A stretch of DNA of 64,000 nt, from positions 384,001-448,000 of the forward strand of contig OZ241996.1 of the NCBI GenBank assembly GCA_965204535.1, given 5' to 3'. Of the stretch, positions 58,034-64,000 are shown piece after piece. The stretch comes from a bacterium (GTDB lineage Bacteria > UBA8248). Numbering within the stretch: position 1 is the first letter of the stretch; every line of letters starts with the position of its first letter. A program made the position numbers and the translations under genes. A model generated the notes under the pieces. That model had not been told where the DNA came from and did no database searches. It saw nothing but the letters and a program-made list of their open reading frames with translations.

Positions 58034-58996
58034 ATGCAAATCGTTATTCCAGACGATTGCTTCCGCTTGTTTGAAGACTCCGAAGCCCTCGGGCGCCTGC
58101 GCACCTTGGGCGACGTGCATTACTACACCGAGAATGCTGAGAGCGAAGTATCGCTCCGCGAGCGCCTGAAAGAAGCGGAAATCATCCTCACGACCAGGTA
58201 CCAGACTGACTTCAAGACAACCGATTTACTGGATCACATTCCTCATCTCAAGATGATTTCCGTGATGGGCACGCGCCCGCGCATGATCGACATGGCTCGC
58301 GCGAACGAGCGCGGGATTGTGGTGAGCACCACGCCTGCCGCAAGCGCCTTTTCGGTGGCCGAGCACACGATGATGCTGATCCTGGCGTTGGCGAAAAGAA
58401 TGCCGCTCATGTTCCCCGCCATGAAGGGGGGTGGCTGGCCGCAGGATCCAGGAGTCGAACTTGCCGGGAAGACGCTGGGACTCATCGGTTTCGGTCACAT
58501 AGCTCGTCTGGTTTGCCGCATGGCCTTGGGTTTCGGTATGCGGGTTATCACATGTTCTCCTTCGATGACGCCGGAGCGCGCGCAGGCGGAGGGGGCGGAA
58601 GCGGCAACTGTGGAGGAATGCCTCGCGTCTGATGTGGTATCGCTCCAACTTCATTTGCCGGCGGGCGCAGCACCCTTCATGACGCGAGAGAAATTCGCCC
58701 GGATGAAAAAGACGGCGTTTTTCGTCAACACGGCGCGCGCTCAGTATGTGGATGAGGATGCGCTGCTGGATGCCCTGCAAAACAGACGCATCGCAGGAGC
58801 CGGTCTCGACGTTTTCGAGCCTTTCGAGCCGTTGCCGGAAGAATCTGTATATCGAACTCTCGATAACGTCGTCATCACGCCGCATTCGGCCTGGATTACC
58901 GATGGCACGTATGCGAGGTTCCGCGACGTGCCGGTAGCGAACATCGAAGCGTTCTTGAGGGGTGCACCCGTAAACGTTGTCAGAGAAGACGCGTAA
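58034..58996 (+). CDS. D-isomer-specific 2-hydroxyacid dehydrogenase
   Basis: SVAEHT, GKTLGLIGFGHIA, VNTAR, GLDVF-EP, TPHSA. Confidence 0.88.
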   Translation: MQIVIPDDCFRLFEDSEALGRLRTLGDVHYYTENAESEVSLRERLKEAEIILTTRYQTDFKTTDLLDHIPHLKMISVMGTRPRMIDMARANERGIVVSTTPAASAFSVAEHTMMLILALAKRMPLMFPAMKGGGWPQDPGVELAGKTLGLIGFGHIARLVCRMALGFGMRVITCSPSMTPERAQAEGAEAATVEECLASDVVSLQLHLPAGAAPFMTREKFARMKKTAFFVNTARAQYVDEDALLDALQNRRIAGAGLDVFEPFEPLPEESVYRTLDNVVITPHSAWITDGTYARFRDVPVANIEAFLRGAPVNVVREDA

Positions 58997-59010: not shown

Positions 59011-59052
59011 CCGCCCCGGCAGTTGATAAGTGCCGGGGCGGTTTTTTCTTTT
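59011..59052 (+). terminator. Intrinsic terminator between convergent genes
   Basis: CCGCCCCGGCA-gttgataag-TGCCGGGGCGG followed by TTTTTTCTTTT. Confidence 0.85.
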
Positions 59053-59732
59053 TACTCTTTTTTGATCAATATGTTGTTGTAAACCAGCGCCGCCGCCACG
59101 CCGCCGATGATCGGCCCTATCCAGTAGACGAGGTGATTGATGCCGTCGAAGCCGCCTCCGGCCAGTGCGGGACCGAACGTGCGGGCCGGATTCATGGATG
59201 CGCCCGTGAGTGGGCCACCCATCAAAATGTCTGCGGCGATGGTGAGGCCGATCGCGAAACCGCCCACGTCGGGGTGTCTGTCGTCCACGGCGGAGCCCCA
59301 GATAGCGGTGACAAGGAAGAACGTGAGGATGATTTCGATCAGAATCCCCATGCCGAAGCTCACGTCACTTGCCAGCGTCGGTGTTCCCAGGTTCACCTTT
59401 TGCCAGACGTCGGCGGCAAAGATGATTCTCAACAGGATGCCGGCCACGGTTCCGCCCACGAGTTGGCTGATGATGTAGGAGATACCCGTGCCGCTGTCTG
59501 TTTTTTTGGTCACCATGAAGCCGATCGTGACTGCAGGATTGAAATGACCGCCCGAGACGTGCCCCATGGCGGAAATCATGACCGAGAGGATCAAACCATG
59601 GGCCAAGGCGATGCCGATTAAACCTACGGCTCCGCCCGTTTTCTGATTCAAGATGATGGAGCCCGCGCCGATGAAGCACAGTGCAAACGTGCCGATGGCT
59701 TCTGCTACGCAGGCCCTTCCTGTAGGACTCAT
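59052..59732 (-). CDS. Aquaporin (MIP family) with TIP-like selectivity filter
   Basis: AEAIGTF, SGGHFNPAVT, GASMNPARTFGPA, YWIGPIIG; SD AAGGAG before ATG 59732. Confidence 0.95.
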   Translation of the reverse strand: MSPTGRACVAEAIGTFALCFIGAGSIILNQKTGGAVGLIGIALAHGLILSVMISAMGHVSGGHFNPAVTIGFMVTKKTDSGTGISYIISQLVGGTVAGILLRIIFAADVWQKVNLGTPTLASDVSFGMGILIEIILTFFLVTAIWGSAVDDRHPDVGGFAIGLTIAADILMGGPLTGASMNPARTFGPALAGGGFDGINHLVYWIGPIIGGVAAALVYNNILIKKE

Positions 59733-59849
59733 TTTTTTCTCCTTGACCATTCGGGCGAAAAATTGAAGGAATCTTCATGCCGCTATTGACACAAGCAGAT
59801 GGTCTCCGGGTAAAGAAAATGGCCTATTCCAAAGTCTCATTATAGCAAA

Positions 59850-60809
59850 TCATGATGAATGCACCACGTTTTGCGGGTTGCCCGAGAGTGCGGCGGCAAT
59901 GTTTTCCACCGACATCAAAAGTCCCGCTTCGGTAACCTCAGGTGTGATGCCTGCATTGTGCGGGGAGAGAACCACGTTTTTCAGTTTCCCGATCGGATGG
60001 TTCGGGGGCAGAGGCTCCTGATCGAATACGTCAAGACCTGCCGCAGCCAAGGCCCCGCTTTCCAATGCCGCTATGAGCGCTTCTTCATCCACGATAGGCC
60101 CCCGCGCGGTGTTCACCAAAATGGTATCCGGCCCCATGCGGGAGAATGCCTCGGCGCCGATCATGCCGATGGTGTCCGCCGATTGCCGTACGTGAATCGA
60201 GACGACGTCGGCCTGCTCATACAAAGTGTTCAAATCGACGAACTCCAGCCCTGCTTCTGCGGCGAAATCATCGTCCGGATGAAACGTCCAGGCGATGAGC
60301 TTCATTCCGACCCCGGCGGCGATGCGGGCCGTCTGGCGGCCGATGGCGCCAAGGCCGATGAGGCCGAGCGTTTTTCCGTGCAATTGCGTCATCTGTCCCC
60401 GTGGCCACTCGCCCGTCCGTATGGCGGAATCATTGACGGGTATCTGGCGCGCGGCCGCCATCATCAGGGCCAGGGTGTGTTCCGCCACGGAAACGGCGGC
60501 CACTCCAGGTGTGTTCGATACGATGACGCCTGCGCTCTCGGCTGCCTTCAAATCGACGTGATCCGTGCCCGTGCCCCAGATCGAAAGTACCTTGAGACCG
60601 CCGCAATTCGAGAAAAAATCCGCGTCGAACTTGCAAAAAGCCCGGATGTTGATGATGCCATCCGCCCCGGTGACGCGTTTTAGCAGTTCTTCTGACGTCT
60701 GTGGGTTGGAGGTATGGATTTCCGCATCCCCGATCTCCCGCAGACGGGTCTCTGCGGAACTGCCGGTGAAAACGGAAGGGTAGTCATCCGGTACGACGAT
60801 TCGGTTCAC
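59850..60809 (-). CDS. D-isomer-specific 2-hydroxyacid dehydrogenase (SerA-like); true start about GTG 60809
   Basis: RIVVPDDYP, GTGTDHVD, SNTPG, GLIGLGAIG, VNTARGPIVDE, GLDVFDQEP, LSPHNAG. Confidence 0.9.
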   Translation of the reverse strand: MNRIVVPDDYPSVFTGSSAETRLREIGDAEIHTSNPQTSEELLKRVTGADGIINIRAFCKFDADFFSNCGGLKVLSIWGTGTDHVDLKAAESAGVIVSNTPGVAAVSVAEHTLALMMAAARQIPVNDSAIRTGEWPRGQMTQLHGKTLGLIGLGAIGRQTARIAAGVGMKLIAWTFHPDDDFAAEAGLEFVDLNTLYEQADVVSIHVRQSADTIGMIGAEAFSRMGPDTILVNTARGPIVDEEALIAALESGALAAAGLDVFDQEPLPPNHPIGKLKNVVLSPHNAGITPEVTEAGLLMSVENIAAALSGNPQNVVHSS

Positions 60810-60902
60810 GAAATAGCCCCTTATACGAAAGAAAATGTAAGCTTTGGAGGTTCTCTTACGTCGCCCTTGCGTGCATAATAACGTTTTTCTGCTGCCATTC
60901 TT

Positions 60903-61481
60903 ATGACACCGAAGGAGACAAGACAAGTGGAACCTCTCGATCCGCGTAAAGACAGCGCTGTTCCCGGTGAACGCGCCATCGACAAGCCCGAACTTCCCAC
61001 CCAGGGCTATGCTTTCACCATGTCCGCCGACACCGAAACGATAGAGGGTAAGGGCCAGCTCAAACTGGGGACACACAGACACTTCGAAGTGTATTGCGAT
61101 GAACCGCCCCGCATCGGCGGGGAAGACTCCTACCCCCAACCGCTTTGCTACATTGCCATGGGGGTGGGGTTCTGACTGCTCACCCAGCTTGCGCGGTACG
61201 CGCATATGATGAAAGTGTCCTTCACGCGCGCCAAGGTGCACGTGGATTTCGATTATTTCTTGCAGGGTTCCGTTCTCAAGGGAACGGTGAATGCCGGATG
61301 CAACGAGGTGCGTACGCACTTTGAAGTGGAATCCGATGAACCGGCGGAGAAAATACTGGCAGTCATCAAAAATGCGAAGCAGGGATGTTTCGCCGAGCAA
61401 ATGGTGACGGACGCCGTTCCTCTGAAAAGCACGATGAGCCTGAACGGCGAATCGATCTCTATGAGTGGTATTACGGCGTAA
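60903..61481 (+). CDS. OsmC-family protein with in-frame UGA (probable selenocysteine); alternative start GTG 60927
   Basis: Track ORFs 60903..61175 and 61206..61481 share a frame: CDEPPRIGGEDSYPQPLCYIAMGVGF-UGA-LLTQLARYAHMM...AKQGCFAEQ. The UGA is at the OsmC catalytic Cys position, with a hairpin downstream. Confidence 0.8.
61173..61204 (+). other. UGA codon plus bacterial SECIS-like stem-loop
   Basis: TGA (61173-61175), then TGCGCG (61190-61195) GTA CGCGCA (61199-61204); the loop begins with GU, 20 nt after the UGA. Confidence 0.65.
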
Positions 61482-61585
61482 AGCGCCTTGCTCATAACTT
61501 GAAACAGGCCGCAACCGCCGGGGTTTCTCGTCGCCCGTCACTTGAGCCGGGAGAGGAGCGCCTCGTCCCTTAAAGACAGGAAGAT

Positions 61586-63094
61586 TTACGCGGTGTCCGC
61601 GTTCGCCTCGGCGGCGCGCTGACCCGCTGCGGTGCCCGCCAGCCGACCGTATACGGAGCCCAGGGTCAGCCCTGCGCCTCCCGGGTAGTTGAAGTAGTAG
61701 ACGCCGCCCACGAGTTCGCCCGCGGCGAAGAGCCCGGGGATGATCTCGTTTTCGGTGTTCATGACCTCCGCTTTGGGTGTTACGCGGATACCGCCGAAGG
61801 TGAACGTGATGCCCGTGGTAACGGCGAAGCCGAGATAGGGCGGCTCATCGATGGGAAGCGCCCAGTTCGATTTCGGGGGATCGATACCCTGTGTGCATTT
61901 GCCGTCTTTGATCGTCGGGTTGTATTCGCCCGACTGAACGGCGGCGTTGTATTCCTGAACGGTTTTAACGAACTCATCGACATCGATCTCGAGTTGTCCG
62001 GCAAGTTCTTCCAGCGTGTCGGCTTCGGCCTTGGTGACTTCACGGATGCGATATTCGTCGCGCAGCATGTGAACCGTTTTCTGGTCGAAAATCTGAAAAG
62101 CGGCCCGCTGGGGCTGCTGGAGGATGTTTCGGCCGTATTTTGCGTAGGTATAGTTTCTGAAATCGGCCCCCTCATCCACGAAGCGTTTTCCCTCGATATT
62201 CACGATGATGCCGAACGGATAGGAGTGCTTCTGGTAGGACTCTCCTACCGTGAGATCACCGAAGGGCGGGGCGTTCAAATCCCAAGCGACCGCGTGACAG
62301 CCGCTCCAGTTGCCGTAAGGCTGCGCTCCGATATCGAGCGCCATCTTGATGCCGTCGCCCGTGTTGTAGGGAGTGCCGCGCACTTTTGCGAGCTCCCAGC
62401 CCGGCCCCAGGTAGCGGCAGCGCATCTCGGCGTTCGCCTCGAAACCACCCGACGCCAGCACCACACCGTGCGTCTCGATTTCGTAAGGCCCATCGGGGCC
62501 TTTTACTTCGACGCCCGTCACGCCGCCCATCGGGTCCGTGAGCAGGCGCATCGCCTTCGATGCGTAGCGAATCTCGACTCCGGCCTCGTTCGCAGAATCA
62601 AGCAGGGAATCGATGAGACCGCGTCCGCCGCCCACGATCTCGAGAACCAGACCGCCCCAGAAGCGCATCTTGCCGTCCACCTTGAATGCCTGCCGGCCGC
62701 TTGCGAGGATGAGCCGCAAGCCCTTTGATTGCATCCATTTCAGGGTCGGAAACGACTCGTGGATGAGGACGGAGGCAAGGTCGCCGTCAGTCTGGTATTC
62801 GGTCAACAGGGCGAGGTCTTCAAAGAATTTTTCCGATGTGTAGGGGTCGATCTCGATATTTTCTTTCTCGGCGTCGGAAAGGTCCGGTACGAGCGAGTAG
62901 ATGTCCTCGATGCTGTTAAAGGCGAACCGAAACAAGCCTCCCGAGAAAGCCGAATTGCCGCCGCGCCATGCCTCGGGCGCTTTTTCGAGCACCAATACCT
63001 TCGCGCCCTGGTCTCGCGCCGCAAGCGATGCGCAAAGTGCGGCATTGCCGCAACCCACGACGACGACGTCGTATTTCTCTGTAGCATTCGGCAT
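61586..63094 (-). CDS. tcuA: FAD-dependent tricarballylate dehydrogenase TcuA-like flavoprotein
   Basis: VVVVGCGNAA, RGGNS, LASGGFEAN, RGTPYNTG, GITFTFGG, GLFAAGE, NYPGGAGL; SD GAGGAGG upstream. Confidence 0.8.
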   Translation of the reverse strand: MPNATEKYDVVVVGCGNAALCASLAARDQGAKVLVLEKAPEAWRGGNSAFSGGLFRFAFNSIEDIYSLVPDLSDAEKENIEIDPYTSEKFFEDLALLTEYQTDGDLASVLIHESFPTLKWMQSKGLRLILASGRQAFKVDGKMRFWGGLVLEIVGGGRGLIDSLLDSANEAGVEIRYASKAMRLLTDPMGGVTGVEVKGPDGPYEIETHGVVLASGGFEANAEMRCRYLGPGWELAKVRGTPYNTGDGIKMALDIGAQPYGNWSGCHAVAWDLNAPPFGDLTVGESYQKHSYPFGIIVNIEGKRFVDEGADFRNYTYAKYGRNILQQPQRAAFQIFDQKTVHMLRDEYRIREVTKAEADTLEELAGQLEIDVDEFVKTVQEYNAAVQSGEYNPTIKDGKCTQGIDPPKSNWALPIDEPPYLGFAVTTGITFTFGGIRVTPKAEVMNTENEIIPGLFAAGELVGGVYYFNYPGGAGLTLGSVYGRLAGTAAGQRAAEANADTA

Positions 63095-63379: not shown

Positions 63380-64000
63380 ATGGAAGCGACTGCCTACCGG
63401 AGTTTCATGGAAGAGCGAATCGCCCGAATTACCGAAGCCTGTACGCATTGCGGAAAATGTTACGAGGTCTGCCCGATGGTTTCGTATTCGGGAGCGAAAG
63501 GCGCAGACCCAGAGAGGGTGACGAAATCCGTGCTCAACATCATCAACGATCGTCCGCATGAACCGGAAGGGGCATTGTGGGCCAAGGCTTGCCAAAAAAG
63601 CGGAGTTTGCATCGAGGCCTGTCCGGAAGACGTCAATCCGCGGGAAATGCTCACCTACGCCAAGCTGAAGCTGCAGAATATCGAATCAGAGAAAGCGGAC
63701 ATCCAGGAAGTCGGCAGGTCTTATTTTCAGGACTTGAGCCGGAAGATTCGTTTCATGGCCGCTTTGCAATTAGAACCCGAGCAATTCAGACGCCTCACCG
63801 CCGTGCGGGGCTCGGAGGCGAACACAGTAGATGCGGTGTTTTACTTTGGATGCAATATCCTCCAGACGCCTCACATCCTGCTCTCCTGCATCGATGTTTT
63901 CGACCGGCTGGGACTGGACTATGAGGTGGCCGGCGGCGTGGGCCATTGCTGCGGCATCAACCACATCAGGCGCGGAGATCTGGAGGCGGGGGCGGCGATG
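63380..64000 (+). CDS. Fe-S oxidoreductase subunit (ferredoxin plus CCG domain, GlpC/HdrD-like); runs off the window and is absent from the ORF track
   Basis: Hand translation: MEATAYRSF...CTHCGKCYEVCP...CQKSGVCIEACP...VFYFGCN...HCCG; no stop up to 64000. Confidence 0.88.
   Translation, partial: MEATAYRSFMEERIARITEACTHCGKCYEVCPMVSYSGAKGADPERVTKSVLNIINDRPHEPEGALWAKACQKSGVCIEACPEDVNPREMLTYAKLKLQNIESEKADIQEVGRSYFQDLSRKIRFMAALQLEPEQFRRLTAVRGSEANTVDAVFYFGCNILQTPHILLSCIDVFDRLGLDYEVAGGVGHCCGINHIRRGDLEAGAAM

Follow-up and report, generated by a model that had tools for sequence, protein, structure and literature searches.

Ohr and OsmC thiol peroxidases carry a peroxidatic and a resolving cysteine together with an arginine and a glutamate, and are recycled by lipoyl groups, as outlined in PMC5384416 and PMC8945050. 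The same accounts set apart a third group, YhfA or "Ohr-like", that lacks the Arg and the Glu and is poorly characterized. OsmC-like selenoproteins with a UxxT motif were listed in 2005 (PMC1088965, Table 3), an "OsmC-like protein" selenoprotein family came out of the Sargasso Sea and GOS surveys (PMC1088965, PMC2398784), and the UxxT entry is tabulated again in PMC1976440, PMC9312934 and PMC13188914. The parts of the survey papers that concern this family give predictions only (PMC1088965, PMC2398784), and we found no biochemical study of a selenocysteine (Sec) form in the literature searched, a collection outside which most subscription journals lie.

Here, we analyze a gene of this kind in a 64,000-nucleotide stretch of a UBA8248 bacterial genome (the window; contig OZ241996.1, positions 384,001 to 448,000). 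The original prediction, made from the letters of the window, proposed an OsmC-family selenoprotein and held that such proteins had been predicted computationally before, which agrees with both the 2005 listing and a curated model, NCBIfam NF041052 "OsmC-related (seleno)protein". The gene is a further member of this known, curated family, a family catalogued since 2005. Its product reaches 182.7 bits on NF041052 (cut-off 95), covering profile positions 2-144 of 144 (174.5 bits when the genome is searched with read-through), matches the PF02566 domain with 47.4 bits (cut-off 27.5), and carries the UxxT motif as U-L-L-T. From motif and fold, we infer that it also corresponds to the exact subfamily listed in 2005.

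The split reading frame and its surroundings

The features of the locus are as follows, with residues numbered from ATG 60903.

60903..61481, + strand: predicted OsmC-related selenoprotein coding sequence (NF041052, PF02566, structure model, start-site comparison)
60912..60917, + strand: Shine-Dalgarno-like AAGGAG, 9 nt upstream of GTG 60927
60927..60929, + strand: likely start codon GTG, from which Sec would be residue 83 and the second Cys residue 154
61098..61103, + strand: Asp66-Glu67, acidic pair of the motif DE-x5-GG-x4-P-x-P (Asp in 64/65 and Glu in 64/65 aligned sequences)
61143..61145, + strand: Leu81, at the column of the Ohr catalytic Glu (NPEQ motif; alignment to 6mjn)
61173..61175, + strand: in-frame TGA, predicted Sec91, first position of the UxxT motif; TGA or Cys in homologues
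61190..61204, + strand: bacterial SECIS upper stem-loop TGCGCG-GTA-CGCGCA, assigned by covariation and the consensus criteria of PMC13188914
61386..61388, + strand: Cys162 (TGT), predicted resolving cysteine
59850..60809, - strand: D-2-hydroxyacid dehydrogenase, divergent neighbor, the real part of a long antisense ORF (Pfam match within 59859-60812)
61586..63094, - strand: TcuA-like FAD-dependent dehydrogenase, convergent neighbor (NF006130, 589.8 bits, cut-off 369)

A single plus-strand frame of 192 codons extends from ATG 60903 to a TAA stop, and its sole internal stop is TGA 61173-61175. Translation table 11 breaks it into ORFs 60903-61175 (90 residues) and 61206-61481 (91 residues); translation confirms the earlier reading of these two as one frame interrupted once, giving ...GVGF-U-LLTQLARYAHMMK... 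around the codon, with the second Cys within KQGCFAEQ. That gene callers would split such a gene is seen directly in a public protein collection, where both halves (90 and 91 aa) stand as separate entries; most fragments of this kind are nameless.

Translation more likely begins at GTG 60927 (184 aa) than at ATG 60903 (192 aa). The sequence AGGAG followed by GTG is kept at this position in 21 of 22 close loci, an in-frame TGA separates ATG from GTG in locus L128, and locus L130 has no ATG in frame, which together favor the 184-residue protein. An equivalent of ATG 60903 is present in 21 of the 22 close loci, and relatives from other genera start near GTG 60927. Thus, the original prediction was right about one frame with a single TGA and probably wrong about the ATG start. 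The additional TGA of L128 occurs in a record that is 91% identical; a match in locus L044 likewise holds two TGAs, and one gene copy elsewhere (G023:C381:615-1165) is seemingly frameshifted, giving two matches. A promoter and terminator scan at the OsmC-like gene returned no signal exceeding shuffles.

The long antisense ORF 59850..61541, under which the gene was expected to be masked, does contain a real 2-hydroxyacid dehydrogenase gene, but its extension over the OsmC-like gene is most likely spurious. Among 80 homologous loci, an aquaporin gene lies near the OsmC-like gene in 25 and a 2-hydroxyacid dehydrogenase in 25 (both in close kin only), a TcuA-like gene does so in 22, and no conserved redox-partner gene was found in these 80 loci beyond close kin. 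We rejected gene neighborhood as a functional clue, the arrangement being limited to close kin. Also present in the window are an aquaporin (MIP) gene (59052-59750, - strand), a second 2-hydroxyacid dehydrogenase (58034-58996, + strand) and a 4Fe-4S dicluster protein (63380-64000, + strand) that is cut by the window end.

Decoding of the UGA codon

Insertion of Sec at UGA 61173-61175 is, in our judgment, close to certain. If the codon is recoded, selA, selB, selC and selD should be found in the genome, as the original prediction pointed out. We detected selA (509 bits), selB (389 bits), a selD gene that itself contains an in-frame TGA, and a tRNA-Sec with anticodon TCA (reading as UCA). Of 51 genomes of the phylum, 49 have a selA match above the cut-off, and the other two genomes are 67% and 79% complete. 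Such a match is also present in four of the five genomes that hold distant, betaproteobacteria-labeled loci, the fifth having none above the cut-off.

The codon itself is strongly conserved. Matches to the gene occur in 31 of 41 genomes. At E<=1e-28 there are 101, of which 100 contain TGA; the remaining one spans residues 8-87 only. A search for a Cys-or-stop pattern in the 80 loci, which favors this clade because its seeds were peptides of the query, gave 83 sites, all 83 with TGA and each followed by a stem of at least 5 bp with a GTA loop. We also aligned 65 proteins, comprising three from this genome (U written as C), one further homologue, and 61 full-length single-domain sequences drawn from 150 matches listed, with fragments and two-domain proteins left aside. 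The column of the UGA holds Cys in 59 of the 62 database homologues, Gly in one and Ser in two, so that the Cys or TGA anticipated at this column is what homologues carry. Twelve of the 150 matches listed are N-terminal halves that stop at GF, right before the codon. A word-indexed homologue search returned only three matches because split forms lie outside the length range searched. Named relatives are labeled Nitrospinota, Nitrospinaceae or Ca. Tectomicrobia.

As public gene sets carry fragments, the distribution of the family is undercounted; yet NF041052 exceeds its cut-off in 48 of the 51 phylum genomes, and each of the matches listed contains one TGA (193 more matches exist). The original prediction named TGC or TGT, or a strain-specific nonsense mutation, as outcomes that would speak against it. 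Neither was seen: contigs spanning the stretch leave the codon unchanged, among the differences listed, although the two contigs without any difference may represent the source itself. Related-strain contigs from RNA libraries (X19 record 5, X20 record 9, X21 record 11) bridge the UGA as well, and were left out as evidence of expression because contigs cannot show transcription.

The hairpin proposed downstream of the codon is present as described, with a perfect 6-bp stem (TGCGCG 61190-61195, CGCGCA 61199-61204) and a GTA loop (61196-61198) that begins 20 nt past the UGA. Bacterial SECIS elements, according to the criteria given in PMC13188914, have a loop of 3-9 nt, a stem of 4-16 bp, a G at loop position 1 or 2, a distance of 16-37 nt from the UGA and an MFE of -7.5 kcal/mol or lower. 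The hairpin agrees with every one of these (3-nt loop GUA, 6 bp, 20 nt, -8.9 to -12.0 kcal/mol). Of 130,163 genomic TGA triplets, 1,450 (1.1%) are followed at 16-28 nt by a perfect stem of at least 6 bp whose loop begins with G, and 19 (0.015%) by the exact geometry. The folding energy of the 48-nt segment does not rise above chance (z -0.55; 55 of 200 shuffles are as stable) and was discarded as SECIS evidence. One hairpin alone therefore proves little, and the support comes from covariation.

Covariation was assessed in 50 distinct segments, each the UGA plus 45 nt, that had been chosen by a TGA-containing motif. Base pairing in the 6-bp stem is retained in 97.3% of 300 cells, and double-sided changes number 26 against 4.6 +/- 1.8 after shuffling (0 of 500 shuffles reach this count; slid controls give at most 7), although these cell counts are inflated by the relatedness of the sequences and are not a probability. 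Among the compensated changes, C-G is replaced by G-C and by A-U at one pair, and the following pair changes from G-C to A-U. Two further covariation measures, pair count and type count, are not above shuffles (230/500 and 198/500), with three pairs showing a double change. Codon choice in the hairpin is locked in: its Arg codon is CGG in 50 of 50 sequences (33% elsewhere in the OsmC-like genes), its Tyr codon is TAC in 49 of 49 (55% elsewhere), and the Ala codon has a third position that tracks its pairing partner. Covariation over the 50 sequences and the published criteria thus bear out the SECIS-like reading of the hairpin. Although knowledge of selenocysteine decoding is unchanged by this gene, covariation and codon lock-in together make for an unusually clean SECIS.

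It is extremely improbable that the TGA is a true stop, whether in a pseudogene, through an assembly error or between two cooperating half-genes. Public gene calls do contain the two halves, and ATG 61206 could re-initiate translation; nonetheless, the Cys column carries TGA and never TAA or TAG across families and Betaproteobacteria-labeled records, the hairpin covaries, and splitting would cost the protein its catalytic residue. Synonymous and non-synonymous codon differences stand at 446:31 before the UGA and 472:184 after it (22 related, non-independent loci), and these ratios indicate that both halves are under purifying selection. Read-through as Trp, Gly or Cys by an altered code or a suppressor tRNA is hardly credible, given that long ORFs end in TGA more often than in any other stop (312 of 654 ATG ORFs of at least 500 codons), that tRNA-Sec alone among 52 tRNAs has a TCA anticodon, that homologues carry Cys at this column and never Trp, the single Gly and two Ser aside, and that nothing favoring such read-through was found.

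Paralogues and other selenoprotein candidates

Two paralogues in the same genome, 69% and 53% identical to the gene, carry TGA at the same column and exceed the NF041052 cut-off of 95 (162.6 and 168.2 bits).

G000:C2:2519419-2519952: paralogue L026, same UGA, stem compensated to TGGGCG/CGCCCA
G000:C2:1924210-1924770: paralogue L027, same UGA

A fourth, divergent OsmC-like UGA gene (L062:1465-1959, - strand; G000:C2:987251-987745) has the motif AGHAG-U-GLYT and carries its second Cys within ENCP. Its hairpin differs, having a 7-bp stem with a GGG loop that lies 17 nt past the UGA. The NF041052 score of 61.5 bits falls short of the cut-off (95). All 12 loci compared retain the TGA, as do 32 of 33 matches from 30 of the 51 phylum genomes. 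Possibly, this gene represents a separate Sec-OsmC subfamily. A dispersed repeat of ~125 bp lies nearby (L062, ~1200-1325), with 42 matches in this genome and 24-37 in most genomes of the genus.

Other arrangements combine two domains or two genes. One ORF (L094:2941-4071, - strand), which starts at a contig edge, encodes two NF041052-like domains with two UGAs and a hairpin after each; its repeats have diverged (41-54 of 60 nt identical) and thus are not a simple assembly duplicate. Protein P0002 closely resembles the piece between the two UGAs. Loci L064, L066 and L093 hold tandem paralogue pairs, seemingly separate genes with their own starts, that may hint at heterodimers. Two-domain members of the Cys form (P0023, P0034, P0048, P0052 and P0008; 320-420 aa) also exist, and in the first three of these the first domain lacks the first Cys, resembling a single-chain pseudo-dimer.

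A genome-wide scan for a UGA plus hairpin yielded 81 candidates, most of which are noise. Among them were the gene and one paralogue, but selD and two other OsmC-like genes were missed, and the scan was therefore not used for counting the selenoproteome. Two of its other sites are likely candidates for selenoproteins: a putative thioredoxin-like W-U-GTC (UxxC) protein at G000:C2:1862440 (- strand) and a putative CoA-transferase-like frame with a UGA at G000:C2:147084 (+ strand). In BSepDB, as presented in PMC13326102, the source genome of locus L137 is assigned to UBA8248, which is placed among the most selenoprotein-rich bacteria.

One broader view, which we regard as doubtful, is that Sec-OsmC proteins have multiplied in this lineage to form a redox toolkit of several copies. 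The Sec-Cys site of three paralogues would be activated by Lys and Asp-Glu, unlike that of Ohr/OsmC, the tandem pairs and two-Sec fusion would point to heterodimers, and AGHAG-U-GLYT would mark a second, independently recoded family with its own SECIS, missed by the curated model.

The predicted active site and its known relatives

The structure model (mean pLDDT 90.4, pTM 0.81) has OsmC/Ohr-family proteins as its best structural matches, led by 2opl (Z 13.3, rmsd 3.1, 156 residues aligned), and places a Sec/Cys pair of the peroxidatic and resolving type on the OsmC fold. The Sec/Cys redox pair of the original prediction is supported by the second Cys, which is present in 63 of the 65 aligned sequences; its label "peroxidatic" was an assumption, and the Glu of Ohr/OsmC is absent. 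That Glu, which follows the P of NPE, is replaced by Leu81 according to alignment with NPEQ of 6mjn, and the column holds Leu, Ile or Met in the alignment, with Glu in none of the 65 sequences. Arg70, which lies in the OsmC-type loop (beta3-alpha1), is kept in 9 of 65 sequences and Lys54 in 51, and the extra cysteines Cys65 and Cys133 appear in 35 and 36, respectively.

By analogy with its relatives, the protein is, on balance, probably a thiol-dependent peroxide reductase that uses the pair Sec91/Cys162. The UGA would be decoded as selenocysteine by SelB, with the hairpin 20 nt further on as its binding site. Sec has a low pKa. Since the Arg-Glu pair of Ohr/OsmC is not conserved, activation would rest on this property, perhaps aided by the conserved Lys54, Asp66 and Glu67, which is speculation. 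Sec91 would attack a hydroperoxide, following Ohr/OsmC chemistry as outlined in PMC5384416, an Se-S bond would form with Cys162, and Sec91 would be re-reduced by a dithiol, for instance a lipoyl group, all in a homodimer. Cys forms of the family lack the Glu too; Sec is therefore not simply compensating for its loss.

It is quite possible that this true selenoprotein is not a peroxidase and that Sec and Cys instead assist another enzyme through thiol-disulfide exchange, by carrying sulfur or selenium, or by binding metal(loid)s. The missing Glu and unconserved Arg would fit such a role, as would the retention of a different set of residues (Lys54, Asp66, Glu67 and, in part, Cys65 and Cys133). 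The closest structures, 3cje, 2opl and 2onf, are structural genomics entries labeled only OsmC-like or hypothetical, and the third group is called uncharacterized where PMC5384416 and PMC8945050 discuss it. This genome has three copies and each of 22 same-genus genomes has three or more, which suggests several substrates. Conversely, the two-Cys spacing and the fold match those of peroxidases, and across taxa no neighboring gene points to sulfur or metal chemistry. For TvOsmC, an Ohr-like protein without Arg and Glu, PMC5384416 recounts activity in one assay and none in another.

Relative to NF041052 (OsmC_like_Se), no defining difference exists; the clade adds an N-terminal extension of ~30 residues (PGER.IDKPELP) that lies outside the profile. 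The protein shares with the OsmC-like selenoproteins of the surveys, as these are summarized there, the PF02566/COG1765 fold, the UxxT motif and a predicted bacterial SECIS. With the Ohr and OsmC thiol peroxidases (PMC5384416, PMC8945050) it has in common the fold, a pair of redox residues at a similar spacing (71 apart here, about 60 in Ohr/OsmC) and the position of the first of these on the helix after P-x-P, but Sec replaces the peroxidatic Cys, Leu replaces the catalytic Glu, and the Arg is not conserved. No Ohr or OsmC profile model exceeds its cut-off for this protein. With Leu at the Glu column and no conserved Arg, the sequence places the protein with the poorly known third group (YhfA/Ohr-like), to which it appears to belong, rather than with Ohr or OsmC proper, and the gene offers a small, well-modeled target for learning what that group does. 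The third-group structures 3cje, 2opl and 2onf are its best sequence and fold matches and likewise combine two Cys-type residues with the absence of the Arg/Glu pair, but they use Cys where this protein is predicted to use Sec, at an identity of only 17-26% in structural alignments.
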